64,000 nucleotides of DNA, taken from NCBI GenBank assembly GCA_019634005.1, contig JAHQWD010000002.1, positions 30,969 to 94,968 on the forward strand, in the 5' to 3' direction. The position numbers and the translations under genes were made by a program. Position 1 is the first letter of the stretch, and every line of letters begins with the position of its first letter. Of the stretch, positions 9,267 to 64,000 are shown in pieces. Under the pieces are notes generated by a model. That model was not told the DNA's origin. It saw nothing but the letters and a program-made list of their open reading frames with translations, and did not search any database. Source of the DNA: Candidatus Kaiserbacteria bacterium (lineage in GTDB: Bacteria > Patescibacteriota > Minisyncoccia > Phycocordibacterales > UBA918).

Positions 9267-9270
9267 TATA

Positions 9271-9300: not shown

Positions 9301-9331
9301 GTTTTGGTTGTTTTGGTTGCTGCCGCTACGT

Positions 9332-9478: not shown

Positions 9479-9581
9479 TTGTTTTCTCCTTGTGAGGGCG
9501 ATTCACCACCTGGTGAATACTTTTATACCCTCACTTTCTAATTATAGTATATCATCTATAGACACTTCTGTCAAGTAATTT

Positions 9582-23402: not shown

Positions 23403-24246
23403 ACCAGATACTCTTTCCGTCAGAAATCATGAAAATACTGCCCTCATCGGCAGTGTTTTTTATTTCACTGACAGAAAGATTCTCCAGAACCTCTGCATGT
23501 GGGTGTCCGTACCTGTTATCCTTCCCGGCGGAAATAATGGAATATGTTGGACGAACTACTTCAATAAACTCCTCTGCAGTTGATGTCTTAGACCCGTGGT
23601 GTCCCACCTTCAGCACATCACTCTGTATATCTCCTTCCAAAAGTTTTCGTTCCACCTCCTGAGGCGCATCTCCCATAAAGAGAAACTCGCTCTCTCCATA
23701 GACCAGGCGTGCGACGATTGAAGCCTCGTTACTTTCTAAATCTGATGCATCAGCCTCGGGGAAGAGGATGGTCAGCACCGCTCCACCGCCAAGGTCATAG
23801 GTCTGACCACGTCGTGCAAAGAGCATCTCTCCTTCAAGACGTTCTTCCACCGCCTGCCAAACTGCGGTCTCACTTTCCTTTTCTGTTCGAAGCACGTGCA
23901 GAATCTCATAGCGATCAAATACAGAAACCAATCCTCCAACATGATCACTGTCTGGATGGGTAATGAGGACATAGTCTATAGTCTTATCAAAAAAACCCAT
24001 CACATCCGCAAGCGGTCGAAGCACCGCACTCCCTCGCCCACCATCGATAAGCATCTGTGTTTCCGTTGGAGATTGTATGAATATGGAATCTCCTTGCCCT
24101 ACATCAAGAAAAACAACACAGAGGAGTCTCTCTGGACATGTGCCAGACTGAGACACCGCCGCAACATTCCGCTCTGGAAGCACATCAAGACTCCCAATGA
24201 GAATGAAGAAGAGTACAAGCAGTATCAAAGAACGAAGGATTCTCAT
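23395..24246 (-). CDS. ComEC-type metallo-beta-lactamase domain protein (stand-alone C-terminal module of ComEC/Rec2)
   Basis: N-terminal TM anchor then LITHPDSDHVGG ... KVGHHGSKTS ... motifs of the ComEC MBL domain. Confidence 0.75.
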   Translation of the reverse strand: MRILRSLILLVLFFILIGSLDVLPERNVAAVSQSGTCPERLLCVVFLDVGQGDSIFIQSPTETQMLIDGGRGSAVLRPLADVMGFFDKTIDYVLITHPDSDHVGGLVSVFDRYEILHVLRTEKESETAVWQAVEERLEGEMLFARRGQTYDLGGGAVLTILFPEADASDLESNEASIVARLVYGESEFLFMGDAPQEVERKLLEGDIQSDVLKVGHHGSKTSTAEEFIEVVRPTYSIISAGKDNRYGHPHAEVLENLSVSEIKNTADEGSIFMISDGKSIWFK

Positions 24247-24889: not shown

Positions 24890-24918
24890 AAAGCCTCACG
24901 AATCTCGTGAGGCTTTTT
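24890..24918. terminator. Bidirectional terminator between convergent sodA (+) and comEC (-) (aaaagcctcacgaatctcgtgaggctttttt)
   Basis: 9-bp stem with A/T tracts both sides; comEC stop lies inside the stem. Confidence 0.6.
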
Positions 24919-26353
24919 TCATTTTCAGAAGTACAGCTCCCATCACGACATAACAAAGTGCAACGATCCAGAATGGGAATGTGGGAACTGCAAACGACGC
25001 GAGCGAGAGATCTCCAAACCATGATGCAACAGACACGATGTATGCAAGTAACCCAAACGCAAAAAATCCAAAAAGCATTCCAAGAGGGGCAGACACAAAT
25101 CCAATGACTCCTGATAAAAATGAGAGGAGCATCGCAAGCGGCACTGCAGGTAACACGAGCACATTCACGAGCGGGGCAACTATAGAAAACTCTCCCATCA
25201 TGTAGAGGAGAAGTGGAAGCACTGCAATCTGTGTTGCAATGGTGGAGACAACAAACTCGCGTATCTGTAATTGCGTCGGTACTCGGATGAAAACTTTTTC
25301 TAAGTGCGGTGCGATTAAGATCAGTCCGAGTGTCGCAAGAAACGAAAGTTGAAACCCTGGATCAAAAACAAGGAGATACGGATTAAAAAGTACCATCACT
25401 GCTCCAGAGAAAAGGAGTGCACGCGTAACCTGATACCGTCTTCCCATCGACCGTGCAAGGAGCACGAGCGCTGCCATGATAGATGCCCGCACGACCGTTG
25501 CAGAGAGTCCAACGATGAGTGCAAATGAAAGAATGGCTCCCCCACCAAAAAGTACGCGTGTCCGTGGCGTCGTGAAGTATGAGAGTAGCCGCATGATGCT
25601 TTCAACGACGATCATAATGTTGTATCCAGAGAGCACCACAATGTGAATGATGCCTGTCTTCCGAAATGCTTCTTCTAAATCTTCTCCGAGGGCTCGTTTC
25701 ACACCGAGCAATAATCCTTCGCCCAGGCCCGCCTCTGGCTCTGGGAGTAGTCGTTCTAGTGAAGACATAAATGAGTGCTTCCACAAAAGGAGTCTTTCAA
25801 TAACTGGATTCCCCTCTCCCTCTCCAAGTACTTCCACCTCCGCACCAGAGATGCGGTGTGTCACCCCACGTGCACGGAGATAGCCAGGATAGTTGAACGT
25901 ACGACCAAGATCTGTTTCAAAAGACTCTGGACGTTCCACAACGCCATGAAACAGAGTACGATCACCATACGCTACATCTAAAAATGGATCCGTAGTGATG
26001 AGTATCAAAGCGTCATGCTCCTCATCCTGTACATAGAGGTGTTGTGAAACACTGCGCACATCTGGCTCACGCACCACAATGCCAACAAGAGAAACCGTAG
26101 TGTTTTCGAGTCCCACATACGGAGATGTTTCCCACGTGGTCACATCCATGCGGAATAATCCGACCGCGCATCCAAGTAAAAACACACTGAAATATAAAAA
26201 GAACGCAGCATATCTGCGTTGCCAAAGTACACCCAACACCAGAGACAGAAGAAGCGTCCAAAGTATCACCGCCTGTGAAACAGGTACGAACGATGCAATA
26301 AATATACCTATGCCAAAGCCACCGAGTGCACTATAGAACGATCCTGCACTCAT
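24896..26353 (-). CDS. comEC: ComEC/Rec2 DNA internalisation channel, N-terminal DUF4131 + competence domain (MBL domain encoded separately)
   Basis: Polytopic membrane protein with OB-like segment (VSLVGIVVREPDV...), conserved ComEC core (IIHIVVLSGYNIMIVV, LATLGLI); ATGA overlap with rnhA. Confidence 0.8.
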   Translation of the reverse strand: MSAGSFYSALGGFGIGIFIASFVPVSQAVILWTLLLSLVLGVLWQRRYAAFFLYFSVFLLGCAVGLFRMDVTTWETSPYVGLENTTVSLVGIVVREPDVRSVSQHLYVQDEEHDALILITTDPFLDVAYGDRTLFHGVVERPESFETDLGRTFNYPGYLRARGVTHRISGAEVEVLGEGEGNPVIERLLLWKHSFMSSLERLLPEPEAGLGEGLLLGVKRALGEDLEEAFRKTGIIHIVVLSGYNIMIVVESIMRLLSYFTTPRTRVLFGGGAILSFALIVGLSATVVRASIMAALVLLARSMGRRYQVTRALLFSGAVMVLFNPYLLVFDPGFQLSFLATLGLILIAPHLEKVFIRVPTQLQIREFVVSTIATQIAVLPLLLYMMGEFSIVAPLVNVLVLPAVPLAMLLSFLSGVIGFVSAPLGMLFGFFAFGLLAYIVSVASWFGDLSLASFAVPTFPFWIVALCYVVMGAVLLKMKKASRDS

Positions 26354-31589: not shown

Positions 31590-33338
31590 CTACTCCTCTG
31601 CGAGTATCCGAAGCACTTCTTCAATACTAGTCTGTCCTAGTGCCGCCTTAAAAAGTCCATCTTCTGCAAGTGTAGTCATACCCTCTTTTGCTGCATGCTT
31701 CTGTATCTTTTCGATGTCTGCTTCTTCAAGAATCAGTTCTCGAAGTGCAGGAGTGATACGGAGCACCTCGTGGATACCGATACGTCCAAGACCCTCCACG
31801 ACAGCATCTTTCTTTGGTCTATAAAATGGAATCGTACTCCATGTTGCAGTCTTCTTCACCACACCTTCAGCCTTGAGGTGTTTAAGGACGGCATTCATAT
31901 CTATATATTGCTCGAGTGCATCACGCTCTTCTTTTGAAAGTGTATACGCCTCCTTCTCTTCTGGGAGTTTCCCAACCAGACGAATGCCGATAGCAAGTTT
32001 TAACGTGTGTGCAAGCACAAATGGCTCTATGTCCATCTCCCGAAGACGGGTAATGACATCCACCGCACGTGCTGCATACATACCACCGAGCATCAGGTGT
32101 CCACTCTGTGCGGCGTGTGTGGTAAGTGTCGCAGTCTGGGCATCTTTAATATCTCCCACCATCACGATGTCGGAGTCTTGGCGAAGGAGTGCACGAAGGC
32201 CTGATGCGAAGGTGAGGCCGAGGTCTGGACGTATCTGGGTCTGATTCACTCGTGCGAGTTGGTATTCTATTGGATCTTCAATGGTTGCTACGTTAACGTC
32301 TGGTGTATTGAGCACATCAAGCATGGTGTAGAGAGTAGTTGTTTTTCCAGAGTCTTCAGGACCTGCAAGCACAATGAGCCCTTGCCGTTCTCGCATAACC
32401 TCGTGAATCTGTTCGAGAGACTCTCCGTGGAAGCCAATACCCTCAAGGGTAAACCCTGAGCGATTCTCTTCCACGAGGCGCATGACTACCTTTTCGCCAA
32501 AGTACACAGGCACTACTGACACACGAAATACAATCTTCTGGCTCTCGAGTTCCATCTTGAAACGTCCTTCCTGCGGAAGATACTTCTGATCCAAACGAAG
32601 TCCTGCAATATTTTTAATCCGTGCACTGATAAACGGTGCCAAACGCTTTGGGAGCACCATCGCATCATGAAGCACGCCATCGATACGGTAGCGAATGACC
32701 AACTCATTCTCTGCTGGTTCTATATGCACATCCGATGCGGACTGTGCAATCGCGTGACGAAGTAACATATCGACAATACGTACCACTTCTGGTCGTTCAA
32801 TACGCTTTGCCAGTGCACTGATATCAATCTTTCCGTCTGCGGTTTGCGGACACTCTGCAACACCACGTGCTTCTTGTGCAATTCGGCTTCCAAACGCTGT
32901 TTTTAACCCTTGGTGATATTGCCCCAGTGCATATTTCATTGAAGCCGTGTCAGTGAGACGAGGGCGCATACGATATCCCATACGCTTTGCGAGCGTCTCT
33001 AACGCCTTCATGTTTTGAACATCAAGGGTTGCCACCTCTAGTACATTTCCTTCTTTCTTAAATGCAATGACATTGTGTCCACGTGCAATTGGCTCTGGAA
33101 TAATGGAAAGCACGTCGAAGGTGAGATCTGTTCCGCTAAGTTGCACAAACGGTACACCAAGAATGTACGCCTCGATACGACGGAGATCATCTTCAGTAAT
33201 GGTTCCATTAGAAATTAATGCTTCTGCAAATGACATGCTTCGATCTTCTGCAAGTGTCTCGGCAGCATCAAGATCCTTCCGAAGTGCCATACCGGAATCG
33301 AGCATAAATCTTTTCAATTGCGCGTCTTGAATGTGCAT
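31590..33338 (-). CDS. pilB: type II/IV secretion ATPase GspE/PilB (type IV pilus assembly ATPase)
   Basis: N-terminal GSPII_E_N domain, Walker A GPEDSGKTTTLY, Asp box VATIEDPIEY, His box. Confidence 0.88.
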   Translation of the reverse strand: MHIQDAQLKRFMLDSGMALRKDLDAAETLAEDRSMSFAEALISNGTITEDDLRRIEAYILGVPFVQLSGTDLTFDVLSIIPEPIARGHNVIAFKKEGNVLEVATLDVQNMKALETLAKRMGYRMRPRLTDTASMKYALGQYHQGLKTAFGSRIAQEARGVAECPQTADGKIDISALAKRIERPEVVRIVDMLLRHAIAQSASDVHIEPAENELVIRYRIDGVLHDAMVLPKRLAPFISARIKNIAGLRLDQKYLPQEGRFKMELESQKIVFRVSVVPVYFGEKVVMRLVEENRSGFTLEGIGFHGESLEQIHEVMRERQGLIVLAGPEDSGKTTTLYTMLDVLNTPDVNVATIEDPIEYQLARVNQTQIRPDLGLTFASGLRALLRQDSDIVMVGDIKDAQTATLTTHAAQSGHLMLGGMYAARAVDVITRLREMDIEPFVLAHTLKLAIGIRLVGKLPEEKEAYTLSKEERDALEQYIDMNAVLKHLKAEGVVKKTATWSTIPFYRPKKDAVVEGLGRIGIHEVLRITPALRELILEEADIEKIQKHAAKEGMTTLAEDGLFKAALGQTSIEEVLRILAEE

Positions 33339-51332: not shown

Positions 51333-51362
51333 AAAACCCAGAGCATATGCTCTGGGTTTTTC
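51333..51362 (+). terminator. Rho-independent terminator after csp (aaaaacccagagcatatgctctgggttttt)
   Basis: 10-bp stem + T-tract; second hairpin at 51380-51407. Confidence 0.65.
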
Positions 51363-51421
51363 TTATATATAAACAATTCAGGCCGCTGAGGTAATCCCCA
51401 GCGGCCTTTACAGCGAAGTGT

Positions 51422-51679
51422 TTACTTCACCCTTGATATTCCGAACGCCTTGAACATGTTCTCCTCAACGGTCAATGCATCTGGACTCATGTTTACAAGG
51501 AAAGTACAACCTTGTTCGGTTGTCTCTGCAGAGACAACTTGCGGGCGAAGCCCTTCGACCACTCCATCGATAAGGTCTCGAGTCATTGGTAGCAAAGGGC
51601 CGTCAGCATTGACGATCGTAATCATCGACTGGTTTTCCCCACAAGGGAAGATGTCGAATCTTGCTTCTTCTACAGTCAT
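51422..51679 (-). CDS. hypothetical protein (85 aa)
   Basis: ATG ORF, no motif recognised. Confidence 0.4.
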   Translation of the reverse strand: MTVEEARFDIFPCGENQSMITIVNADGPLLPMTRDLIDGVVEGLRPQVVSAETTEQGCTFLVNMSPDALTVEENMFKAFGISRVK

Positions 51680-51888
51680 TTTGAACCTCTCTTAATGTGC
51701 TTTCTGTTTATTATACCATCTAGAGAATCTATGTCAACTAAAGACGGAGGATTCCTGGCAAATGAGCGAACAGACAGCGTGTTCGGGCAACACCTTGCAA
51801 AAATAGTCAATCTATGGTAGAGTGGTGGCACCTTCGCAGGTAGAAGAAAGACAGCAATTGGTTCAATTGCTTTTTATTTTCAAACATT

Positions 51889-52155
51889 ATGCTAACAAAA
51901 CGAAAGAAAGAAAACGCAACAAAAGATGTGAAGCGTCATGACTCTGACACTGGTTCTCCAGAAGTACAGGTTGCATTGCTTACCAAGCAGATTGACGAGC
52001 TTTCTTCTCACCTCAAGAAACACGCTAAGGATTTTCATTCTCGCCGTGGACTACTCCAGATGGTAGCTGACCGACGTAAGCACCTCAAGTATCTTGAGAA
52101 AAAGAACGAGAAAGCATACAAGAGCATCGTAAAGAAACTTGGTCTGAAGCGATAA
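51889..52155 (+). CDS. rpsO: 30S ribosomal protein S15
   Basis: ...DTGSPEVQVALLTKQIDELSSHLKKHAKDFHSRRGLLQMVADRRKHLKYL typical S15. Confidence 0.93.
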   Translation: MLTKRKKENATKDVKRHDSDTGSPEVQVALLTKQIDELSSHLKKHAKDFHSRRGLLQMVADRRKHLKYLEKKNEKAYKSIVKKLGLKR

Positions 52156-52274
52156 CGACCAGCGAAGGCGCACCACTTGGTGCGCCTTCATGCTACAATG
52201 CGAAGGTACTCTGATTCTCTTTTAATACTGGTACTTCAGAGAAACAATTTTTTAATATATAAACAACTATAAAT

Positions 52275-52853
52275 ATGTCTGTTATTAAACACAAAGAGCA
52301 GCGTGTGGCTCTCTTTATTGACACGCAAAACCTATATCACAGTGCAAAGAATCTCTACAGAGCAAAAGTAAACTTTGACGCCATCGTAAAGGCGGCTGTC
52401 GGAGACCGAAAACTTGTACGGGCACTTGCCTACGTGGTAAACACCGAGAGTGGGGAAGAGAAGCCCTTTTTCGAGGCACTTGAAAAGATTGGAATTGAGG
52501 TAAAAACCAAGGATCTCCAGATCTTCTTCGGTGGTGCTAAGAAGGCAGACTGGGACGTTGGTATGGCAATTGATGCCTGTAAGGTCGCAGACAAGGTGGA
52601 TGCCATTATCATTGCAACAGGGGATGGAGACTTTATTCCGCTTGTAGAATATGTACGTTCGCACGGTGCGCAGATTGAAGCAATCACCTTTGGACGCTCC
52701 GCATCATCAAAGCTCCGAGAATTCGTAGATGACTTTATCGATCTCGATGAAGAGCCAAAGAAATATCTTATTGGATATCGTGCACCACGAAAGAAGCGAG
52801 GTGTCACAAAGAAGATCCAAAAGGTAGTGGGAACTGATACAGACGACATTTAG
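52275..52853 (+). CDS. NYN/LabA-like domain protein
   Basis: RVALFIDTQNLYHSAK ... DWDVGMAIDA ... IIIATGDGDFIPLV acidic residues typical of NYN/LabA fold. Confidence 0.7.
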   Translation: MSVIKHKEQRVALFIDTQNLYHSAKNLYRAKVNFDAIVKAAVGDRKLVRALAYVVNTESGEEKPFFEALEKIGIEVKTKDLQIFFGGAKKADWDVGMAIDACKVADKVDAIIIATGDGDFIPLVEYVRSHGAQIEAITFGRSASSKLREFVDDFIDLDEEPKKYLIGYRAPRKKRGVTKKIQKVVGTDTDDI

Positions 52854-52908
52854 TCTTATTCCCGAATCATAATTCTCAAGAGAGAGTCTCTGCGATACTA
52901 TAAAGTAT

Positions 52909-54222
52909 ATGGCGGAGGAAAAACCTCTTATTGAACGAAAACCTGGAACTGCAAAAGATTCGGAAATCTTTGACGTTGGGCGTGCATTTGAATCAGGTGA
53001 GGTTGCAGGTACTATTGTATCCGACAAAAAACGGAAAGGTGTTTTTGGACAACTGAAGGATGCTGCCACAGAGATTGCAGGAAGTGCAACAAAGGCGGTG
53101 CAGGAAGTAAAAGTTTTTGAAGAACCCGAAGAACCAAAAGTCACTCCAGGTACAGAGCGGAAAGACATCATTGAACGAGCAGTCCAAGATGCCGAGCAAG
53201 CACCACAGGATGATCATGATGTTGTTATTGAACGTATACGCACATTCCAGAAAGACGCAGAACGGGTCAGTGGGAAACCGTACCTTATAAAAAAGAATAA
53301 GGAACAAACAAAATCCTCATGGTCACATGTTATTGGTGATAAGCCCGCAGAGCAGAAAAAAGAAACGGAAACAAAACCTGCACCACAAGTAACGGAGACC
53401 ATACGCCGTGCTCCAAAGCCACAGATGCCGCAGCAGATGGAACGTGCTGTCATTCCAACACGGAAAGTGCCGACAACGGAATCTGTGGTGGAACAAACTC
53501 CACCACCACAGCCAGAACCGCAAGTTGAGGAAACCCCGAAACCAACGCCGCCAGTGCCGCCTCGCCCGCAATCAGCACCACAAGAATCAACACGTACGCG
53601 TTCTCTTGTCACTATTGGTGTCGGTGTCCTTGCAGCTATTATAGTGCTCGGCGGAGGCGTGTACCTCTATACACTTCTCACCAACCCAACAAGTACGACC
53701 GTCACGCAAGAACCAATCGAACTGGATCTCAATGAATACCTCCCTCTGGAGCAGCTTGCAACGCTTCCTGTCCGTCTTGAGAATCAAGAAGCCACTATCT
53801 CTCAAGTAGTGATTGTGACACGCCAAGGAGAAACCACTCCGCTTACCACAACACAATTCTTAACTGCAGTTGCTGAGAATGTTCCAAGTACCCTTGTCCG
53901 TTCTCTTAATGGATCAATGGTTGCAGGCGGTATTCGCACAGGTGGTGGAACATACCCATACCTCCTCTTCCGTACTATTAATTTTGACAACGCGTTTGCA
54001 GGAATGCTTGCCTGGGAACGATCCATGGGTACTGATCTCAACGAGCTCTTCACGCGAGCGCAAGGAGATATATTTGTTGATCGTGTCCTAGAAAACCAAC
54101 ATGTACGTGTCCTCTATGATGTCAATGGTATCGAGCGTCTTGTTTATGGATTTGTGAGTGGACGTATGCTCATTATTACCAATACCAGCGCTTCATTCAA
54201 AGCAATTGTCTCTGAATTGTAA
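52909..54222 (+). CDS. hypothetical membrane-anchored protein with Pro-rich linker and extracytoplasmic domain (437 aa)
   Basis: Low-complexity PQ-rich region (TPPPQPEPQVEETPKPTPPVPPRPQ), TM helix LVTIGVGVLAAIIVLGGGVYLY, globular C-terminus. Confidence 0.5.
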   Translation: MAEEKPLIERKPGTAKDSEIFDVGRAFESGEVAGTIVSDKKRKGVFGQLKDAATEIAGSATKAVQEVKVFEEPEEPKVTPGTERKDIIERAVQDAEQAPQDDHDVVIERIRTFQKDAERVSGKPYLIKKNKEQTKSSWSHVIGDKPAEQKKETETKPAPQVTETIRRAPKPQMPQQMERAVIPTRKVPTTESVVEQTPPPQPEPQVEETPKPTPPVPPRPQSAPQESTRTRSLVTIGVGVLAAIIVLGGGVYLYTLLTNPTSTTVTQEPIELDLNEYLPLEQLATLPVRLENQEATISQVVIVTRQGETTPLTTTQFLTAVAENVPSTLVRSLNGSMVAGGIRTGGGTYPYLLFRTINFDNAFAGMLAWERSMGTDLNELFTRAQGDIFVDRVLENQHVRVLYDVNGIERLVYGFVSGRMLIITNTSASFKAIVSEL

Positions 54223-54245
54223 TCTGCGTGCTATAATCCCTGCAT

Positions 54246-54620
54246 ATGAAAGACACAGTACAATACAAGACAAGACTTGAGGAAGAACTCAAGGAACTTA
54301 CTGCAGAATTAAAAACTATCGGTGTACATGATCCAGAGAACACAGAGAACTGGATCGAATCTGGCGCAGACCTCAATGATCCATCTGCTGATCCACTTGA
54401 TGTAGCAGATCGTACTGAGGAGTACGGCGAGCGCCGTGCAACCGTTGCTGTTCTTGAAACACGCTATAACAACATTACTCGTGCGCTTGAGAAAATAGAA
54501 AAGGGAACCTACGGGATATGTGAGATAAGCGGGGAAGAAATTAGCCCTGAGAGACTCGATGCAAATCCTGCTGCACGAACCTGTACAGCACACATGGAGG
54601 AAGAGAACTCGCTCTCATAA
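54246..54620 (+). CDS. DksA/TraR-family C4 zinc-finger protein
   Basis: Coiled-coil N-terminus then CEISGEEISPERLDANPAARTC zinc-finger. Confidence 0.6.
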   Translation: MKDTVQYKTRLEEELKELTAELKTIGVHDPENTENWIESGADLNDPSADPLDVADRTEEYGERRATVAVLETRYNNITRALEKIEKGTYGICEISGEEISPERLDANPAARTCTAHMEEENSLS

Positions 54621-54624
54621 ATAG

Positions 54625-54655
54625 AAAAAACCGCTTCAACACGAAGCGGTTTTTC
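54625..54655. terminator. Bidirectional terminator (aaaaaaccgcttcaacacgaagcggttttt) between dksA-like (+) and M23 peptidase (-)
   Basis: 8-bp stem flanked by A6/T5. Confidence 0.65.
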
Positions 54656-54659
54656 TTTA

Positions 54660-55670
54660 TTAAAATGGATTCCGCGCGCCACGAACCTCAAAGTGGAGAT
54701 GTGTTCCCGTCGAACGCCCAGTATTTCCAACTCCACCCACTGTCTCACCAGCACCCACTGTCTCACCGACTGATACCGATACCGATGAAAGGTGTGCATA
54801 GAGTGTCTGGGTACCGTTCCCATGACGGATCACCACATAATTTCCATATCCACCATTCCACCCATACCCTTTAGCCACGATAACCGTTCCGCGAGCAACT
54901 GCACGAACTGCAGTGCCTGCAGGAAGGCCCGCAAGGTCCACACCGTTATATCCGTGGATACCCTGTGTCTTCACTGCGCCTGGAAGCGGATGTACAAATC
55001 CAGCACTTCCATTACCTGTAAGGGTGACTGCTGATGATGCACCACGTGAGACAACTGGTGCGGCCATAACCCCACTTGGAACTACGACAATATCGCCAAC
55101 ACCAATATCTCCCACACCAGCGAGACGGTTATACGCAACAATCTCGTCAGCATCACCTTCATACTTCTTCGCGATGGATGCAATGGTATCACCCTTCTTC
55201 ACGACGTGGCGGACACCCGTGATAGGGAGAATAACGAGAGTGTCTCCTGGCTGGATAACACTTGGATCCTTAATGTCATTTGCCCACAGGATGGTGTTCG
55301 AAGATACATCAAACATCTCTGCAATCTGTGAAAGAGTATCTGCCTCACGAACAACATAGACACTAATTTCTCCTTTTTCTGTACGACTCTCAGTATCAAT
55401 ATCTTTTCGCACATCACCATCAGGCACAAGTGCTCCTTCTTCTATAAGAATGTCTCCGCCGCCCTTTGCAGGATTAGGATCTGAGTGGAGCGCTGCTTTG
55501 AGGAGGGACGTAGACTGTGCAGAGGCAAGCACTGTCTCTTCAGTTGTCTGTTCTTCAGAGGTAAGAAGGTTACCAAGTGACGAGAAAAAACCTGCTTGAA
55601 CAGAGAGAGGGAGAATGATCGCAAGGAGCGCTCCAAGGACAATGGAGCGTTTCACACGAAGATATGTCAT
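54660..55670 (-). CDS. M23 family peptidoglycan metalloendopeptidase with two LysM domains
   Basis: Signal anchor; LysM repeats (DTLSQIAEMFDVSSNTILWAN, DTIASIAKKYEGDADEIVAYN); C-terminal M23 motifs (GYNGVDLA, GNYVVIRHGNG, TGTHLHFEV). Start trimmed to ATG 55670 (track start is GTG). Confidence 0.8.
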   Translation of the reverse strand: MTYLRVKRSIVLGALLAIILPLSVQAGFFSSLGNLLTSEEQTTEETVLASAQSTSLLKAALHSDPNPAKGGGDILIEEGALVPDGDVRKDIDTESRTEKGEISVYVVREADTLSQIAEMFDVSSNTILWANDIKDPSVIQPGDTLVILPITGVRHVVKKGDTIASIAKKYEGDADEIVAYNRLAGVGDIGVGDIVVVPSGVMAAPVVSRGASSAVTLTGNGSAGFVHPLPGAVKTQGIHGYNGVDLAGLPAGTAVRAVARGTVIVAKGYGWNGGYGNYVVIRHGNGTQTLYAHLSSVSVSVGETVGAGETVGGVGNTGRSTGTHLHFEVRGARNPF

Positions 55671-55897
55671 CCGTTTATCAGTATCGTCGGAATCGTGATG
55701 TGTAGGTTGAATAAGCCTTTTGTTTTGGTCTCGCCGCCTGTTTGCTTCCACTACGGTCACTTCGTTTTACCTCCCTACATTTTCGGGATACCCACAATAC
55801 TATAGGAGCCTCTCTGGGGGTCAACCTTGCTATTTCACAGTATCCACCGTGCTATAGAAGGAGACTTTTCACGCTTCAATAGAGCCACATTTCCCAT

Positions 55898-55927
55898 ATT
55901 GACACCAAAATATATTGTTATCTAATA
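55898..55927 (+). promoter_or_regulatory. Sigma70-like promoter TTGACA-18-TAATAT upstream of pcrA
   Basis: ttgacaccaaaatatattgttatctaatat; TTGACACC extended -35 as in other promoters. Confidence 0.45.
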
Positions 55928-55970
55928 TCTCTGCACTTTGTTATGGTATAGTGCTTGCGATTACGTATAT

Positions 55971-57914
55971 ATGCTTGATTTAAATACACTGAATGCACCT
56001 CAAAAGGATGCAGTGACCACAACCACAGGACCCCTTCTTGTACTGGCGGGTGCGGGATCTGGAAAGACACGCGTCATCACATATCGCATTGCATACCTTA
56101 TTGAAAACGGTGTCGCACCACACACGATTCTTGCACTGACGTTCACCAACAAGGCTGCAAAAGAAATGCGTGAGCGAGTGACCACGCTCATCGCAGAAAA
56201 TGAGACGACCAATCGTATCGAATCCACACCTTTGGTGACCACCTTCCATGCGCTTGGTGTTCGTATCCTTCGTGAACACCATGACCGCATTGGATTAAAA
56301 CGACAATTCGCGATCTACGACCGAAGTGACTCCAACCGAGCAATTAAGAAATCTTTAGAAAAAGCGGGGTACGATCCCAAGCAATTTGAGCCGCGGAAGA
56401 TGCTTAGCATCATTTCACGAGCAAAGGGAGACGCGCTCTCCCGCACTGATTTCCTTGATGGCGCACGATCTTTTCCAGAACGGGTCGCGGGGGAAGTGTG
56501 GGCACACTACGATGCGATTCTTCGTGAAGAACAGGCGGTCGACTTTGATGATCTCCTTCTTCTAACACTGAATCTTCTTCAGAAACATACCGATGTACGA
56601 GAGCAGTATCAGAATAGGTTCAAGTATGTTCACATAGATGAGTACCAAGACACCAACAAGGTACAGTATGAAATCGCTTGTCTTCTCTTAAATAAGGAGC
56701 GGAATCTCTGTGTTGTGGGAGATGTCGACCAAAACATTTATAGTTGGAGAGGAGCGAACGTTACCAATATTTTGAAGTTTGAAAAACATTTCCCAGGATG
56801 TAAGACCATACTCCTTGAAGAGAATTACCGCTCAACGCAGACGATCATTGCTGCATCAAATAGCATTATTGAAAAGAACGTACGGCGACCTGAGAAGAAG
56901 GTCTTCACGAATAATCATGAGGGAGATCTGATTTCTCTGTATGTCGCCATGAATGGAACCGAGGAGGCGCAATATGTCGCACGACGGGCGCAGGAACTGA
57001 TCAGCAACGGTGCATCTCCAGCACATATTTCTGTTCTCTATCGTACCAACTTCCAATCTCGTCTTCTTGAGGAGGCTTTCCTTGATGCCAATATCCCATA
57101 CCAACTACTGGGTACAAAATTCTTTGAACGAAAAGAGATCAAGGACATTCTGTCATATCTCCGCTATGCACTAAATCCTGAAATCACCGCAGACCTTGCA
57201 CGTATCGTGAACACGCCAAAGCGCGGTATTGGGAAGGTGACACTATTAAAGCTCATCGAAGGAAACCGAGCTGATATAAAAGGGAAGACACTCGAGAAAG
57301 TTGCTCACTTTGAACAACTCATCGAAGACATCGGAGTATACGCACGAGCACACCCTGTTAGTAACACACTGAAGTTCATCATGAAGCAGTCGGGTATGGA
57401 AGAATCACTTAAAAATGATGGGGAAGAGGGATTGGAACGTCTTGAAAACCTTCGGGAGCTCGTGACACTTGCAACACGATATGATGCCTTTGAACACGAA
57501 GAGGCTATCGAACGGCTTCTTGAAGACGCTGCACTTCAAAGTGATCAAGATGAGATGGAGGAAGAAAAAGAAGCGGTACGTCTCATGACCGTACACGCTT
57601 CAAAAGGACTCGAGTTCCCGTATGTCTTTATTACAGGACTTGAAGAGGGACTTTTCCCGCATGAACGTATCGTAGAAGAAAAAGGGCGGAGCACTCACGA
57701 CGATGAGGAAGAGCGACGACTCTTCTACGTGGCATTGACCCGAGCAGAAAAGAAAGTCTTCCTTTCTTTTGCGCACCTCCGTACCATCTTTGGAAGTGAA
57801 CGCGTGAATGCACCGTCTTCTTTCCTCCAAGACATCAGTGATGACCATCTGCAGGAAGAAAATCCAAATGGATATGGCGGAGGAGGAGGAGAAACCGTTG
57901 TATACTTAGACTGA
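55971..57914 (+). CDS. pcrA: ATP-dependent DNA helicase PcrA/UvrD (superfamily 1)
   Basis: LNAPQKDAV, Walker A GAGSGKTRVIT, motif II VHIDEYQDTN, QNYRST motif III; start trimmed to ATG 55971. Confidence 0.9.
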   Translation: MLDLNTLNAPQKDAVTTTTGPLLVLAGAGSGKTRVITYRIAYLIENGVAPHTILALTFTNKAAKEMRERVTTLIAENETTNRIESTPLVTTFHALGVRILREHHDRIGLKRQFAIYDRSDSNRAIKKSLEKAGYDPKQFEPRKMLSIISRAKGDALSRTDFLDGARSFPERVAGEVWAHYDAILREEQAVDFDDLLLLTLNLLQKHTDVREQYQNRFKYVHIDEYQDTNKVQYEIACLLLNKERNLCVVGDVDQNIYSWRGANVTNILKFEKHFPGCKTILLEENYRSTQTIIAASNSIIEKNVRRPEKKVFTNNHEGDLISLYVAMNGTEEAQYVARRAQELISNGASPAHISVLYRTNFQSRLLEEAFLDANIPYQLLGTKFFERKEIKDILSYLRYALNPEITADLARIVNTPKRGIGKVTLLKLIEGNRADIKGKTLEKVAHFEQLIEDIGVYARAHPVSNTLKFIMKQSGMEESLKNDGEEGLERLENLRELVTLATRYDAFEHEEAIERLLEDAALQSDQDEMEEEKEAVRLMTVHASKGLEFPYVFITGLEEGLFPHERIVEEKGRSTHDDEEERRLFYVALTRAEKKVFLSFAHLRTIFGSERVNAPSSFLQDISDDHLQEENPNGYGGGGGETVVYLD

Positions 57915-57916
57915 TC

Positions 57917-58723
57917 ATGACCAATCTTGAAGCGAAAAAATCTTTGGGTCAGAATTTCCTTACCAACCCCAAGGTGCCTGAGTGGATGGCGGATGCAGGG
58001 AAGGTGAAGAAGGGGAGCGTCGTCCTTGAGATAGGTCCAGGAACAGGAATGCTCACTCGAGAACTCCTTGCCCGCGGCGCACAGGTTGTTGCTATTGAAG
58101 CAGACCCTCGAGCAATGGAAATCCTTCACGAGACATTTCCCGAAGCCATTAAAAATAGAAAACTTCTTCTCATACACGGTGATATTCGGGAGATGACCGC
58201 AGAAGATATTCCTGTTTCCCCCCATGAATACACGTTAGTTGCAAACATTCCTTACTATCTTTCTGGACACCTCTTTCGCTTCTTTCTTTCGGGGAATATA
58301 CAGCCAAAGACCTTGGTGTTCCTTGTTCAAAAAGAAGTTGCAGTGCGTATTGCACGAGATGAAAAAGAGTCTCTACTGTCTCTCAGTGTAAAGGCATTTG
58401 GAACACCACAATATATAAAGACAATCTCAAAAGGAAACTTTCGACCACAACCAAAAGTGGATTCCGCCATTATCGCCGTCACTGATATCTCACACGATAA
58501 TTTTAGAAAGCTTCCTGAACCATTTTTCTTCAAGATACTTCATCTCGGACTCTCTGCAAAACGAAAAATGCTTCTCGGGAGTCTTGCGAAGGAATATGAC
58601 CGCGATACTCTGAAAGAAATCTTTACAAAACTGGATATTCCACTAACGGTCAGGGGGGAAGATCTTCCTGTCAACAGGTGGTTCACCCTTATACAGACTT
58701 TATACACAACTTTTAAACAGTGA
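57917..58723 (+). CDS. rsmA: 16S rRNA (adenine1518/1519-N6)-dimethyltransferase RsmA/KsgA
   Basis: LGQNFL, SAM-binding VLEIGPGTGMLT, NIPYYLS motifs. Confidence 0.9.
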   Translation: MTNLEAKKSLGQNFLTNPKVPEWMADAGKVKKGSVVLEIGPGTGMLTRELLARGAQVVAIEADPRAMEILHETFPEAIKNRKLLLIHGDIREMTAEDIPVSPHEYTLVANIPYYLSGHLFRFFLSGNIQPKTLVFLVQKEVAVRIARDEKESLLSLSVKAFGTPQYIKTISKGNFRPQPKVDSAIIAVTDISHDNFRKLPEPFFFKILHLGLSAKRKMLLGSLAKEYDRDTLKEIFTKLDIPLTVRGEDLPVNRWFTLIQTLYTTFKQ

Positions 58724-58796
58724 CTTCAGGTGTTCTCCACGTATTTTTCCTCTCATTATCCAGACAGGGACACATTCTTGGTATACTGGAGACACA

Positions 58797-59633
58797 ATGA
58801 ATAGACGTATTGGAGGAGCGGTTATTTTTGGTATTGCACTTGTGGCAATTGCCTTTTTCGTACGCTTCCACGAACCTGCAATGACCTCCTCTACAGTCTC
58901 AACCATTCCGACAGAACAAACATCTTTTGAGACAAACCAAGATTGGGAGGCACTACTGAAGACGAGAATGGAACGGTCGACTGAAGATGAAGAGGCTATC
59001 GCAGACGACATCGAGCTTGACACAAGTATTACAGGAACGTTCGCACGTACGTTCTTCGAGAACTATCTATTCTTGAGTGCACAAGGCAACTTAACCGCTG
59101 AACAAGAGGAAAACCTCATCAATTCTTCTATTAGTTCTTTACGATCTGAGGCAACGGATAGGGTATACACCCTCTCTGACATTCCTCATACTACCGAACC
59201 ATCTCTTTCGTATCTTCGTACGTACGGAAACGCGCTTGCTATTGCACTTCGTGCACATCCAGATCCAGCAGAAAACGAGCTTGTTGTATTTCAACGAGCT
59301 GTAGAGACCAATGAAGCAAAGCATCTTGCTGACCTTACCGAACACGAGTCAACCTATGATGCGTTTCTCAAGGATCTACTTTCTATAGAAGCCCCTATCG
59401 AACTTCAGGATGAACACCTTGTGATTGTGAACGCGACACTTGCACTTCGTAATGATGTTCGCGGCATGATGTTGTTCTTTGAAGACCCCCTCTACGCAAC
59501 ATTACGTGTCCAACGATACACGACTGATTTAGAAGCTGTGTACGCTGCTCTACGTACTATTTATTCATACCTAGAAGACCGAGGGATACGGTATACTGAA
59601 GGAGAACCTGCTGCTATCATAAAAGTACAGTAA
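58797..59633 (+). CDS. hypothetical membrane-anchored protein (278 aa), first gene of T4SS-like locus
   Basis: N-terminal TM anchor AVIFGIALVAIAFFV; TATACT 11 nt before ATG. Confidence 0.45.
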   Translation: MNRRIGGAVIFGIALVAIAFFVRFHEPAMTSSTVSTIPTEQTSFETNQDWEALLKTRMERSTEDEEAIADDIELDTSITGTFARTFFENYLFLSAQGNLTAEQEENLINSSISSLRSEATDRVYTLSDIPHTTEPSLSYLRTYGNALAIALRAHPDPAENELVVFQRAVETNEAKHLADLTEHESTYDAFLKDLLSIEAPIELQDEHLVIVNATLALRNDVRGMMLFFEDPLYATLRVQRYTTDLEAVYAALRTIYSYLEDRGIRYTEGEPAAIIKVQ

Positions 59634-59639
59634 CGCCTT

Positions 59640-60989
59640 ATGTTTAAGTCTCGAAACATCTTTACACAAAGTATAGTAAGCACACTCTTAATTTTTGTGC
59701 TTGTGTTGGCACCTCTCACACCAACTCTGCAAACAAAGAAGGCAGAGGCACTCTTTGGTGTTGGTGATACTTCAATCGTTATCGTAGACATTCCTCGCGT
59801 CGTCACCGAGATTGCCAACGGAATTGTCTACGCACTCGCGAAAGCGATCGTAAATCGTATCGTTGAGAGTACTATTCGATGGATCAACTCTGGATTTAGA
59901 GGAAGCCCTACTTTTATTCAAGATCTGGATGGATTCCTTCTTGAGACGCTGGATGTGACCGTCGGTGATTTCATATACGGAAGTGAACTTGGTTTCTTCT
60001 GTGAACCCTTCCAATTAAGTGTACGGACAGCGCTTGCCATTGATTACTATGGTACGGGGACTGAACGATATGCCTGTTCTCTCTCTGGTGTTGCAAATAA
60101 CATTGATAATTTCATAGGAGATGCTGGAGAGGAAGGATGGGCTCGTTGGTTTAACGTGACAACACAACGGCAGAATAACCAGTATGGTGCTCTTGCTCAG
60201 GCGAATGAAGACCTTGGTGTTGTTCTTACAAATGCAAGAGGAAGGGAACTCCAGCTCCTTGATTGGGGAGATGGATTCATTACAATTGAGAAATGTGAAA
60301 CTGGTGCAGATGGTGTCGAGCAGTGTTATAACACCACTCCTGGAAAACTTATCTCTGAACAGCTCATCAAAGCAGTTGGGGCAGGGCAGGACACCCTTAT
60401 AGCAGCTGACCAGATTAATGAGATTGTGGGAGCACTCTTGAGCCAACTTGCCATTCAAGTCATCTCTGGAGCAGCTGGTCTTCTTGGTCTCTCTGGAGGA
60501 GGATACACTGGCTACACGGGATCCCGATCATATCTTGACCAGCTTGCAGATGAAGGAGCAGAACTCACTGCCGCTGGTGAAAGAGGGGAGATGGAACTGA
60601 CAAAAACACAAGAAACACAGATACGTGATACGTATGTAGACGTGCAGAACCTTGTCACAGACACACAGAAAGAGGCAAAACGTCTTGTTGACGAGGAAGG
60701 TTGTATCGCTTCAACAGCAATTCCTCAAGAACTTAGTGATGCGTATGCTGAAGCAACGGAACAAATCCCTGTTGTTGCGGCAAACGTTGATGTCATCGAT
60801 GCACTTATTGCAAATTATGATGGTGGAGACACAGAAGAGGCATATGATTCATATCAGAGACTCGTTGATGCAGATGTGTTCTCAACATCAGCTGACGCAG
60901 TAAATGCTTCTTCACTCCTTAACAGTGCTATCACAGCAAGTACATCATTCCTTGAAGACATTGAGAGTAAGTGTGAGATATCAACATGA
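59640..60989 (+). CDS. hypothetical secreted protein (449 aa)
   Basis: Signal peptide ...LTPTLQTKKAEA; no recognisable motif; 4-nt overlap with next gene. Confidence 0.5.
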   Translation: MFKSRNIFTQSIVSTLLIFVLVLAPLTPTLQTKKAEALFGVGDTSIVIVDIPRVVTEIANGIVYALAKAIVNRIVESTIRWINSGFRGSPTFIQDLDGFLLETLDVTVGDFIYGSELGFFCEPFQLSVRTALAIDYYGTGTERYACSLSGVANNIDNFIGDAGEEGWARWFNVTTQRQNNQYGALAQANEDLGVVLTNARGRELQLLDWGDGFITIEKCETGADGVEQCYNTTPGKLISEQLIKAVGAGQDTLIAADQINEIVGALLSQLAIQVISGAAGLLGLSGGGYTGYTGSRSYLDQLADEGAELTAAGERGEMELTKTQETQIRDTYVDVQNLVTDTQKEAKRLVDEEGCIASTAIPQELSDAYAEATEQIPVVAANVDVIDALIANYDGGDTEEAYDSYQRLVDADVFSTSADAVNASSLLNSAITASTSFLEDIESKCEIST

Positions 60990-63082
60990 TGGGCATCATT
61001 CGAAATAATCGTATAGGTCATCTCTTCCTTTGTCTTTTTTTCTCTGCGTTCCTCATCAGTGCACCAATCGCAACCACTCTGGACACCCCTTCATACGCCT
61101 ACGCAAATGAGATTGACAAGGCAAACGCCCTCTCAAACAGTGATAGTCTTGGTATAGAGATGGGAGAATGGATTCTCTCGCTTGGAGCATACGTTGCGGG
61201 AATTGGTGGAGTACTACTTGATCTCTCAATCAAGAGTTTTGCCATAGATATGAAACAAACACTCTTTGGAGACCAAGAGAATCCACGGAGTCTTGGTGGT
61301 ACTATTCAAAACATGTGGACGGTAGTGCGCGACATCGCGAATATCGTCTTTATATTTGGTTTTTTATACATTGGAATAATGACTATATTCCGTCCTGACA
61401 GCTCTCGTGTGAAAGGGCTGCTTGCACAGCTCATCATCGCAGCACTTTTAATAAACTTCAGTCTTTTCTTTGTTCAAATTATTGTTGACATCTCCAGTCT
61501 CTTTGCAGGAGAAATACATAAATATATTCCTTCAGGAGAAGGAACTGACATCGGTCTTGAATATGCACATCTTATGGGACTCACTGGCCTCTACGGAGAC
61601 CTCCCACCAGAACAGTTACAAAAACTTACGGGAGGGGGTGCCTTTGCGTTCTTTGTCATCGGAACCATCTTCATGATGATTGCGGGATTTGTTATGGCTG
61701 CGGGAGCGGTGCTTCTTATCGTCCGCTTTGTTGCACTTGTTCTTTTCATGATCTTTTCACCCCTCCTGTTTGCTGCAGCTATCTTTATGGACATGAAAGA
61801 ATATTGGAAAAAGTTGATCAACTACGCACTCTTTGCCCCAGCATTTCTTTTTCTTCTCTATCTATCCTATAAAATCCTTGAAAATGCTCCATGGAATAAG
61901 ACAACGAGCTTTGCTGAGGTCTTGCTCGTCAGCAACCTCGAGAATACGGATGCATACTCTGTCATCTTGCAGTTTACCGTTGCGCTCTTCTTCCTTATTG
62001 CAGCACTTAAATCTGCAGACGCTTTAGGAATCATGGGAGGTAAGGCAGCCGTATCGGTAGGGAATCGTGTTCGTGGAGTAGTGCAGTCTTCAGCTCTTGC
62101 ACTTCCTCGCGGTATTGGATCCTGGACGGGTCGTACTGTTGTTGGCGGAGGAATGAATCAAATTCAGAAAGGATCTGAACGTATTCAGGCGCGAAATGGA
62201 GTGCTTGCAAAAAGCATACGTTTGACCGGTCTCGACCGAACAATTTCTCAAGCTGCTGATAAGGCCAATAAGAAGGAGTTCTTTGGGGGAACATCTCGTG
62301 CCAACGTGAAGAGTTATGAAAAGAAACGAGATGCAAAGAGTGTGAAACTTCGTGGCGCAATGAAGCTCAAAGATGCCATTGGAATCCCTGACACTCAAGA
62401 AAAACGAGATGCAGTTGGTGCAGCAGTGCTCAATCTAACAAAACAACAACTTGAAGAAGCGGGAGCAAAGACACTTAAGGATGCAGAAGTTATGCGAGTG
62501 CTCTCCAATAGCCAAATGGAGGCTATCCTTGGAAGTGATGAATTTAGTGATGAAACGAAAGCAGAGTTCAAAGAACTTCGTGGGGAAGCTATTGAGAAAC
62601 TACTCACCCAGGCAGCAGGTGCTAATGCGACCTTGCTGGACGGTATTGGAAAGGCAAGTATCTCACAACTTGAAGCTTTGGGTACCGAACGATTGAAAGC
62701 ACATGCAGCTGGGCTCTCTTCTGCGCAGTTAGATAAGATCAAGAGTAGTAAGCAGTTTACTGAAACGCAAGTGCAAGATATTACAACCGCCCGTGCACAG
62801 GGTCTCGTCGCACAATTTAAGATAGATCCAGACTCTGTCCTTGGAGGAAAGAAGGAGGAGGAAATTGCAAAGATGCCATTCGATGTCCTTAATGACGACA
62901 ATGCAATTAAGTACATAACGGGAGGGGTGCTCAAGACCATTGTTGACAAACAAACCCTCACCCCAAAACAGCGTAATGAACTTGCTCTACGAGTTACCCA
63001 CGGCCCATTACTATCTGAGATAGATCCGACGGTAGAAACATATCTAGATTCTCCACATGGACAATCTGCCTATAACCTTTAA
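60986..63082 (+). CDS. large polytopic membrane protein, VirB6/TrbL-like (T4SS inner-membrane channel component); tentative
   Basis: Signal peptide, at least five hydrophobic helices (residues ~60-330) then ~370-aa hydrophilic C-terminal domain; this architecture plus adjacent PrgI-like gene suggests VirB6 analogue. Confidence 0.45.
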   Translation: MMGIIRNNRIGHLFLCLFFSAFLISAPIATTLDTPSYAYANEIDKANALSNSDSLGIEMGEWILSLGAYVAGIGGVLLDLSIKSFAIDMKQTLFGDQENPRSLGGTIQNMWTVVRDIANIVFIFGFLYIGIMTIFRPDSSRVKGLLAQLIIAALLINFSLFFVQIIVDISSLFAGEIHKYIPSGEGTDIGLEYAHLMGLTGLYGDLPPEQLQKLTGGGAFAFFVIGTIFMMIAGFVMAAGAVLLIVRFVALVLFMIFSPLLFAAAIFMDMKEYWKKLINYALFAPAFLFLLYLSYKILENAPWNKTTSFAEVLLVSNLENTDAYSVILQFTVALFFLIAALKSADALGIMGGKAAVSVGNRVRGVVQSSALALPRGIGSWTGRTVVGGGMNQIQKGSERIQARNGVLAKSIRLTGLDRTISQAADKANKKEFFGGTSRANVKSYEKKRDAKSVKLRGAMKLKDAIGIPDTQEKRDAVGAAVLNLTKQQLEEAGAKTLKDAEVMRVLSNSQMEAILGSDEFSDETKAEFKELRGEAIEKLLTQAAGANATLLDGIGKASISQLEALGTERLKAHAAGLSSAQLDKIKSSKQFTETQVQDITTARAQGLVAQFKIDPDSVLGGKKEEEIAKMPFDVLNDDNAIKYITGGVLKTIVDKQTLTPKQRNELALRVTHGPLLSEIDPTVETYLDSPHGQSAYNL

Positions 63083-63093
63083 TAACACTTCAT

Positions 63094-63618
63094 ATGGACT
63101 GGAACACCCGTTACAAAAAATACCTTGAGTCGCCGACACATATACAGGAGGCGTACAGTGGCTCAGAGACAGGGAAGCTGCTCCGCAGTACTGCTGAGGC
63201 ACATCACATTCCCGATAATGCGTACGCCCCATTTGCGCAACTTATTGGAGATGTCATCTTAGGAATATTGTCATTAGAAAGACTCCCTGTACAACTCCAG
63301 GAAGCAGTAGGAATCTCCCCGACAGACGCTGAGGGAGTTACTACCGCACTGAAGCCATTTATTACCGAGATGCATAAGACACCTCCTGCGCAACAAGAAG
63401 TAGCTGATCGAGAGGAAGATACGGTATCTAAACCCAATATAACTGAGTCTCCTATACTGCAGGCAACACGTACTATGGAGAAAGACATTGCAGAGGCGAC
63501 AGATAATGAAGCGCCACAGTGGCGTACCGTAGAAGATGCCGAGGACACAGTTGAATCACCTGAGACAGCAATCCCCAGCTACGCTAAACCGTTAACCGAC
63601 ACACCAAAGTACGAATAA
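63094..63618 (+). CDS. hypothetical protein (174 aa)
   Basis: ORF between VirB6-like and PrgI-like genes; no motif. Confidence 0.4.
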   Translation: MDWNTRYKKYLESPTHIQEAYSGSETGKLLRSTAEAHHIPDNAYAPFAQLIGDVILGILSLERLPVQLQEAVGISPTDAEGVTTALKPFITEMHKTPPAQQEVADREEDTVSKPNITESPILQATRTMEKDIAEATDNEAPQWRTVEDAEDTVESPETAIPSYAKPLTDTPKYE

Positions 63619-63657
63619 TCCACCGTTGTTATTCTGTGAATGATGTACAATGAGGTC

Positions 63658-64000
63658 ATGCGATTTGAGGTGCCACAGTTCATAGAGATTGAGGATAAGA
63701 TCTTTGGGCCGCTTACGTGGCGTCAATTTGTATATCTTGCAGGTGGGGCAGCAGTTGTTGTTGTTACTTTTCTTGCCCTGCCACTCTTTATATTCCTACT
63801 TACTGGCGTTCCTATTGCTATCCTTGCTTTCTTCTTAGCATTCCACAAGATAAACAATAGACCATTCGTCTTTTTTCTCGAGTCTGCGATAAATTATTTC
63901 TTTGGAAATAAGCTCTATCTCTGGAGACGGAGGCACAAAGATGTCGTACATGCACAGACTGATACGCCTGTGTCGCCGAAAACGCAAGAGGTCCCAACAC
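63658..64000 (+). CDS. PrgI-family (VirB3-like) T4SS membrane protein, partial (continues past window end)
   Basis: Read directly (not in track because no stop): MRFEVPQFIEIEDKIFGPLTWRQFVYLAGGAAVVVVTFLALPLFIFLLTGVPIAILAFFLAFHKINNRPF... matches PrgI-family signature and two-TM topology. Confidence 0.55.
   Translation, partial: MRFEVPQFIEIEDKIFGPLTWRQFVYLAGGAAVVVVTFLALPLFIFLLTGVPIAILAFFLAFHKINNRPFVFFLESAINYFFGNKLYLWRRRHKDVVHAQTDTPVSPKTQEVPT

Follow-up and report, generated by a model that had tools for sequence, protein, structure and literature searches.

Gene content and genomic setting of the operon

The upstream half of a chromosomal type IV secretion operon occupies positions 58797–64000 of a 64,000-nt stretch of DNA from Candidatus Kaiserbacteria bacterium (GCA_019634005.1, contig JAHQWD010000002.1, 30,969–94,968 of the forward strand), referred to below as the window. 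A survey of open reading frames (ORFs) in the window places five of them in this segment, all on the + strand (Table 1). An earlier interpretation made from the nucleotide letters (the sequence-only reading) had described a locus resembling a type IV secretion system (T4SS), in which three unknown secreted or membrane proteins with overlapping starts lead the cluster and a VirB6-like protein directly precedes PrgI. The overall assignment is supported by the results given here, and the proposed arrangement holds in part. Proteins p278 and p449 do lead the cluster, each possessing one N-terminal hydrophobic segment; the third, p174, follows p698 instead, separating it from PrgI, and is an acidic soluble protein with zero hydrophobic or transmembrane (TM) segments. 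Likewise, an overlap (ATGA, 4 nt) is found at the p449/p698 junction only, while the remaining junctions are spaced by 6, 11 and 39 nt.

The locus could be followed past the window edge using assembled sequencing data. A Logan contig (L082, run SRR12681089) overlaps window positions 63087–64000 at 100% identity over 914 nt and therefore continues the window; a second contig of the same run (L081) corresponds to window positions 51335–63108 and ends inside the window. The full gene order is p278, p449, p698 (VirB6), p174, PrgI/VirB3, a TrsD-like VirB4 N-domain protein, VirB4 ATPase, p213, p318, p305 (VirB2-like pilin) and p387. In L082, the last four of these genes come after the VirB4 ATPase gene and are followed by yidC, rnpA and rpmH (−), and by dnaA and dnaN. 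On the upstream side the neighbours are uvrD/pcrA and then ksgA/rsmA, the latter directly adjoining the operon. Lying between uvrD-ksgA and yidC-rnpA-rpmH-dnaA-dnaN, the operon thus adjoins the replication origin. Its GC content (0.44–0.46) resembles that of the surrounding window DNA, and a scan for promoters and terminators yielded counts not above those in shuffled sequence.

Table 1. Genes of the secretion operon lying in the window, and a neighbouring peptidase gene (window coordinates).
Feature	Position	Strand	Description
p278	58797..59633	+	first gene of the operon
p449	59640..60989	+	identified in the ORF survey
p698	60986..63082	+	extended VirB6/TrbL-like polytopic membrane protein
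p174	63094..63618	+	small acidic soluble protein in the slot between VirB6 and PrgI
PrgI/VirB3-family protein	63658..64000	+	PF12666; frame opens with MRFEVPQFIEIEDKIFGPLTWRQFVYLAGG and exits at the window edge
LysM x2 + M23 peptidase	54663..55760	−	PF01551, 101 bits; PF01476, 78 bits

PrgI and a split VirB4 at the window edge

The frame opening at 63658 begins with MRFEVPQFIEIEDK, and its product is truncated by the window end. Its 114-aa fragment matches PF12666 with 43.7 bits against a curated cut-off of 27 (E 4e-11), confirming the PrgI/VirB3 signature recognized in the sequence-only reading. The full-length protein (P0121), 100% identical to the window fragment, scores 42.6 bits with the same model. 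The gene ends at the window-equivalent position 64086; its product has 142 aa if translation begins at MRFEV and 147 aa in the call that begins at 63643. This small protein contains an N-terminal hydrophobic stretch (approximately residues 24–63) with room for a hairpin of two TM helices. At E ≤ 1e-20 it has over 5,000 relatives in the database, and almost all of these carry a PF12666 call.

The same reading had anticipated a VirB4 ATPase just outside the window. It is indeed present in L082, from the same organism, with the refinement that VirB4 is split into two genes: a gene for a TrsD-like N-domain, separated from the PrgI end by 2 nt, and a gene for the ATPase proper. The N-domain protein (211 aa) gives a sub-threshold match to TrsD (E 1.7e-7, 31 bits, cut-off 200) and further sub-threshold matches to VirB4 N-terminal regions, overall in the range of E 1e-6 to 1e-10; a precomputed match to PF26593 (TraC-like) also exists. 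The ATPase (601 aa) scores 366 bits with the CD1110-type VirB4 model NF045971, above its cut-off of 325, and passes the Pfam cut-off for PF19044 (P-loop_TraG) with 88 bits. Residues of its Walker A (ATSGAGKS) and Walker B (LLVIDEAW) motifs are invariant across 71 VirB4 orthologues.

The best family of this VirB4 is that of CD1110 from the conjugative transposon CTn2. The closest plasmid-encoded VirB4 proteins share 28–35% identity with it, and the 15 best-ranked plasmid homologues all come from monoderms, whereas orthologues in Paceibacteria loci show a median identity of 76%. According to the survey by Quinonero-Coronel et al. 2025, VirB4 occurs in 2,417 of 3,035 Patescibacteria genomes, and these proteins make up a monophyletic group within the mating-pair formation (MPF) class MPF-FATA (PMC12102498). 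The identity pattern fits such a Patescibacteria VirB4 clade.

Assignment of p698 to the VirB6 family

Protein p698 carries an N-terminal hydrophobic segment and six further TM-like segments within residues 10–341, exceeding the five expected as a minimum, followed by a hydrophilic tail of 357 residues; the description of a VirB6-like polytopic core with a long hydrophilic tail is thereby borne out. In the AlphaFold2 (AF2) model the helical core has a predicted local distance difference test score (pLDDT) of 80–97. Residues 441–698 (~260 residues) form an all-helical domain with pLDDT 95–98, which is weakly conserved at the sequence level (15% identity). This C-terminal domain is preceded by a strongly basic linker and is therefore probably cytoplasmic by the positive-inside rule. 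The public gene call for p698 begins one codon later.

Profile searches placed p698 among VirB6 proteins through its relatives rather than directly. In a Pfam scan p698 itself matches neither PF04610 nor PF19590 at E ≤ 1; for PF19590 there is a weak precomputed match, confined to the database entry identical to p698 (P0001). However, 39 of 60 p698 homologues (E 1e-145 to 1e-13) match PF04610 TrbL/VirB6, the best at 6.5e-11. When the p698 family profile was compared with the sequences of the PDB, the top match was TrwI, the VirB6 of R388 (E 0.017), with an alignment extending across the membrane core, and the fold of p698 is similar to that of a solved VirB6. The closest known members of the VirB6 family are TrwI of R388 (7o3v_F, 8rt9_F) and DotA of Legionella (9ngy). 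We therefore accept p698 as an extended VirB6 at the family and structure level. Profiles thus agree with both of the membrane-protein assignments made earlier, for PrgI outright and for VirB6 at that level, and the VirB4 gene follows downstream.

Pilin gene and neighbouring wall peptidase

The gene p305 (305 aa; L082 5105–6022, window-equivalent 68191–69108) encodes an N-terminal region of ~70 residues (~41–107) matching T4SS_pilin PF18895 with 25.7 bits, against a cut-off of 26.6 (E 1.3e-5). The same model is matched by 42 of 48 p305 orthologues, the best at 1.9e-8. The domain is followed by an acidic, Cys-containing C-terminal extension of ~200 residues, and the orthologues, with lengths of 200–400 aa, are well above classical VirB2 pilins in size. 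The pilin of the system is this downstream protein and not p449.

A divergent gene on the upstream side, separated from the operon by two genes (uvrD and ksgA), encodes the peptidase with two LysM domains and an M23 domain. LysM/M23-containing VirB1 candidates have been reported in Patescibacteria (PMC12102498), and the Kaiserbacteria protein is a candidate cell-wall hydrolase that might play a VirB1-like role for the T4SS.

Conservation in related genomes

Species-representative genomes were scanned with the PrgI fragment, resulting in 80 loci, nearly all from metagenome-assembled genomes (MAGs) of Paceibacteria type (Kaiserbacteria, Nomurabacteria, Paceibacterota and others). Upstream genes were counted in the 58 loci with at least 5.5 kb of upstream sequence and downstream genes in the 55 loci with at least 7.5 kb of downstream sequence. 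p278 is found in 55/58 loci, p449 in 56/58 and p698/VirB6 in 58/58; each of the genes for the VirB4 N-domain, VirB4 ATPase, p318, the pilin-domain protein and p387 is present in 55/55, and in all 55 PrgI stands immediately 5′ of virB4. With such counts for the three upstream genes, for both parts of the split VirB4 and for three further genes, the gene arrangement is not due to chance. The unannotated genes around VirB6, PrgI and VirB4 are conserved as strongly as the named ones.

Synteny extends into the flanks, with uvrD, ksgA and the divergent LysM-M23 peptidase gene upstream (the last in 40 related loci with a flank of that reach) and yidC-rnpA-dnaA downstream. The whole block is syntenic in ~55 related genomes and keeps a fixed housekeeping context rather than the variable context typical of an island. 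We rejected the idea of a decayed remnant, given that no gene is disrupted and that the ATPase motifs do not vary. The set of inner-membrane T4SS parts (VirB3, split VirB4 and extended VirB6), together with the pilin-domain protein and four exported proteins, is complete, intact and vertically inherited.

As a separate observation, many of the MAG records are labelled "uncultured Candidatus Saccharibacteria bacterium" (loci L004, L007, L009, L010 and others) and yet display Paceibacteria-type synteny and 55–63% PrgI identity; these labels look generic or wrong.

Conserved accessory proteins

Neither Pfam nor NCBIfam gave a match for p278, p449 or p174, in keeping with the earlier description of the companion proteins as unannotatable; for p278 and p449, searches against solved structures were likewise negative. 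The conserved accessory protein p278 is bitopic, with one N-terminal TM segment (residues 4–22) and a ~255-residue acidic domain devoid of cysteines, which is presumably extracytoplasmic. A profile built from 49 p278 orthologues found no match among solved structures.

Protein p449 possesses an N-terminal signal or anchor segment (residues 12–30) and a conserved core spanning approximately residues 57–310; beyond a Gly-rich linker, the protein ends in a helical bundle. Four cysteines of the core (C121, C146, C219 and C229) are near-invariant, and it bears the motif W81-INSGF-G-P-F, features that suggest a disulfide-bonded extracytoplasmic domain; p449 is presumably an extracytoplasmic accessory subunit. 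An exhaustive HMMER search revealed a large family, comprising 4,070 representatives at 50% identity with E ≤ 1e-3 and 962 with E ≤ 1e-30. Scanning of 75 members (47 orthologues and 28 long members) detected no T4SS-related or family-wide Pfam domain; the sole fusion seen was SdrD_B/CarboxypepD_reg in one of the 47 orthologues. The profile of these 47 orthologues gave nothing meaningful against PDB sequences. The AF2 model of p449, built from a four-row alignment, has a pLDDT of 47.8, with residues 310–449 alone being confident, and a Foldseek search with this poor model returned coiled-coil noise alone, giving no support to a pilin or adhesin fold.

The genes for p174 and p213 occupy positionally conserved, fast-evolving slots: a p174 homologue is detectable in 16/58 loci, while the slot itself holds an ORF of 100 aa or more in 55/58. 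The exported conserved accessory proteins are p278, p449, p318 and p387. Profile hidden Markov models (HMMs) of p278, p449, p174, p318 and p387 found no partner in four monoderm T4SS loci, in which HMMs of PrgI, both VirB4 parts and the pilin domain do find partners, as does that of VirB6, weakly. The accessory proteins thus look lineage-specific.

A tentative proposal, which we regard as somewhat doubtful, is that p449, along with p278, p318 and p387, represents an unrecognized core extracytoplasmic subunit (or subunits) of the Patescibacteria T4SS, acting as a lineage-specific substitute for VirB8, VirB5 or an adhesin layer missed by published surveys and serving as the host-contacting part of an essential machine. 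If this is true, p449 would define a new phylum-wide T4SS component family having neither a Pfam model nor a solved relative.

DNA-processing genes and possible function

Conjugative elements carry a relaxase and a VirD4/TcpA coupling protein beside the MPF genes, and no such combination was found within the window and 10 kb downstream of it. An ORF survey of the window, with profile scanning of part of its ORFs, detected no relaxase and no VirD4-type coupling protein (T4CP), and none are present among the L082 genes (10 kb downstream); of the two ATPases sought in the downstream extension, VirB4 was thus found and VirD4 was not. No integrase, relaxase or T4CP was seen in the 74 kb surveyed. 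Across the 80 related loci, the only ORFs of at least 450 aa with a Walker A motif besides VirB4 encode DnaA. Similar observations were made for related genomes: in the 2025 survey, relaxases are reported in just 103 of 3,035 Patescibacteria genomes, T4CP genes are seldom close to virB4, and inter-class transfer is rare (PMC12102498).

These data bear on whether the operon could be the MPF module of an integrated conjugative or mobilizable element, with its relaxase and coupling protein encoded elsewhere. The affinity of VirB4 to CD1110 of CTn2 and the occurrence of conjugative plasmids among the sources of its nearest plasmid homologues are in line with such an origin. However, the block lies between housekeeping genes in identical order in ~55 genomes, its GC content does not set it apart from the neighbouring DNA, none of the expected mobility genes were found in the 74 kb, and both relaxases and inter-class transfer are infrequent in the phylum according to the same survey. 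We consider this explanation extremely improbable, and a mobile-element origin was rejected on the grounds of fixed synteny and the lack of a relaxase.

In our opinion it is very probable that the region is a chromosomal Patescibacteria-type T4SS operon, most likely non-conjugative, as neither a relaxase nor VirD4 was found, and probably involved in contact-dependent exchange with a host bacterium. VirB6 and PrgI would form a membrane channel or platform docking a VirB4 hexamer, which in turn would power the building of a VirB2-type pilus or conduit through the monoderm envelope; the nearby LysM-M23 peptidase may open the wall. Counterparts of VirB8, VirB5 or adhesins are undetectable in the operon, and p278, p449, p318 and p387 could build the extracytoplasmic, host-facing part in their place. 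The assembled machine might then exchange proteins or other macromolecules with the host, by protein export or another kind of transfer, without DNA conjugation.

Experimental data on a related organism are relevant to this function. Transposon sequencing by Wang et al. 2023 demonstrated that Southlakia epibionticum requires the orthologous cluster SEML1_0006-0019, pilins included, as an essential set of genes when growing on its host; this cluster is without recognizable coupling and relaxase proteins (PMC10633639). A 2025 review states that competence of Southlakia relies on type IV pili and ComEC, and that deletion of comEC abolishes transformation but not viability (PMC12857230). Since the T4SS is essential while comEC is dispensable, DNA uptake linked to ComEC is not what makes the T4SS essential.

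The last point weighs against a DNA-uptake machine, in which the T4SS would import DNA in the manner of H. pylori ComB or archaeal Ced and feed nucleotides or genes to a genome-reduced epibiont. Such a role would agree with the failure to find a relaxase or VirD4 nearby, with a weak similarity of VirB4 to CedB (E 2.6e-8, 33 bits) and with the presence in the window of a PilB-type ATPase and of a ComEC divided between two ORFs, indicating that the organism invests in uptake. Yet the CedB similarity reflects the shared P-loop core alone and is far under the model cut-off of 700 bits, and loss of comEC in Southlakia stops transformation only. DNA uptake is therefore an unlikely function of the operon.

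Another alternative is a surface filament or adhesion organelle, that is, a VirB2-type pilus used for host attachment with no translocation. The strict conservation of the pilin-domain gene (55/55 loci), the number of exported accessory proteins and the lack of a detected coupling protein that would recruit substrates all accord with it. Nevertheless, adhesion in Saccharibacteria is already provided by type IV pili (PMC12857230), and a PilB ATPase is encoded in the window. We find a purely adhesive organelle improbable, although it overlaps with secretion rather than excluding it, and no evidence separates the two. Contact-dependent exchange with a host remains our preferred interpretation. 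Few machines have been demonstrated to be essential to the epibiotic way of life of these ultra-small bacteria, and the Patescibacteria T4SS is one of them. Its conserved unannotated proteins, above all p449 with its large family outside the domain databases, stand out as candidates for the extracellular components that are missing.

Other features of the window

The window encodes ComEC as two ORFs on the − strand: 24899–26353 (485 aa), containing DUF4131 and Competence domains, and 23398–24246 (283 aa), containing a metallo-beta-lactamase domain, with ~650 nt between them. The gene at 31593–33338 (−) encodes a PilB/GspE-type type IV pilus assembly ATPase with an MshEN domain (PF00437, 308 bits). 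One 64-kb stretch containing PilB, ComEC and the T4SS operon thus brings type IV pilus, competence and T4SS functions together.

Close to the other end of the window, a low-GC segment of ~3.7 kb (1862–5583; 0.38–0.43 against 0.46–0.51 around it) lies between rpsH (1484–1861) and rplE (5584–6117), both on the − strand, and thereby splits the ribosomal-protein spc operon between S8 and L5. The five ORFs within it are distributed over both strands and are virtually unannotated; among them are those for a 419-aa protein lacking a Pfam match and a 165-aa DUF2335 membrane protein. This segment may represent an island inserted into the operon, the conservation of which is unusually high.

Comparison with known systems

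Two systems dedicated to DNA import, H. pylori ComB and archaeal Ced, are VirB4-driven and work without a relaxase or coupling protein, as would be the case here. However, the operon shows no specific sequence affinity to Ced, given a CedB score of 33 bits against a cut-off of 700, and ComB is a diderm system with VirB7-10.

Closer similarity is observed to monoderm conjugation systems of the MPF-FATA class, represented by pCF10 (PrgH/PrgI/PrgJ), CTn2 (CD1110) and plasmid loci of C. perfringens (L086) and Embleya (L084). They share with the Kaiserbacteria operon the order of PrgI followed by a CD1110-type VirB4 (28–35% identity), and they too encode a VirB6-like membrane protein, with a wall hydrolase gene in the vicinity. 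Unlike the Kaiserbacteria operon, the conjugative loci of C. perfringens and Embleya have a relaxase, MobC and a VirD4-type T4CP beside PrgI-VirB4, and homologues of p278, p449, p318 and p387 were not found in the MPF-FATA monoderm loci. The organization of VirB4 also differs, being one-piece in C. perfringens and split in Kaiserbacteria. The Embleya plasmid NZ_CP108778.1 encodes a 350-aa "PrgI family protein" (8437–9486) that is recognized by two HMMs, that of PrgI (E 9.6e-7) and that of the VirB4 N-domain (E 2.2e-13); two modules that are separate genes in Patescibacteria are fused in this PrgI-VirB4N protein.

A split VirB4 is shared by two Bacillota plasmid loci, found on a Pontibacillus megaplasmid (L083; NZ_CP062975.1, 4474–14027) and on Priestia megaterium pFDU301A (L085; 7874–12097), where the VirB4 N-domain HMM gives E values of 1.8e-38 and 6.1e-34, respectively. 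Both loci also contain Mbov_0395-family pilin-like genes and a PrgI-like gene, and the Pontibacillus locus an M23 peptidase gene. They differ from the Kaiserbacteria operon in their location on Bacillota plasmids, in the absence of any homologue of the accessory proteins found in Patescibacteria and in a VirB6 HMM score below significance. Both plasmids are typed as non-mobilizable; no relaxase is annotated near the Pontibacillus locus, and the Priestia record carries no gene annotation at all. These loci may be the nearest relatives of the split-VirB4 architecture outside Patescibacteria.

The closest correspondence is with the Patescibacteria-clade T4SS itself. In the 2025 survey, genes near Patescibacteria virB4 encode TrsD (a homologue of the VirB4 N-terminal part), PrgI/VirB3, VirB6 and VirB2-like pilins, and the Paceibacteria cluster sits by dnaA, dnaN, rnpA, ksgA and rpmH (PMC12102498). 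The Kaiserbacteria operon shares PrgI/VirB3, the separate TrsD-like N-domain gene, VirB4 with MPF-FATA affinity, VirB6, the VirB2-like pilin gene near virB4 and the same chromosomal position, and likewise has no relaxase or T4CP close by. It differs from Saccharimonadia, which carry arrays of short pilins, in that a single pilin-domain gene was identified, that of p305 with its long Cys-containing C-terminal extension. Proteins p278, p449, p318 and p387 appear unnamed in the sections consulted of that survey (PMC12102498).

The locus is thus another instance of the published, near-universal Patescibacteria T4SS, described in 2023–2025 and already known as a system; this identity and the splitting of VirB4 are the two points that the sequence-only reading had missed. 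It adds no new system type and provides a clean Paceibacteria example.

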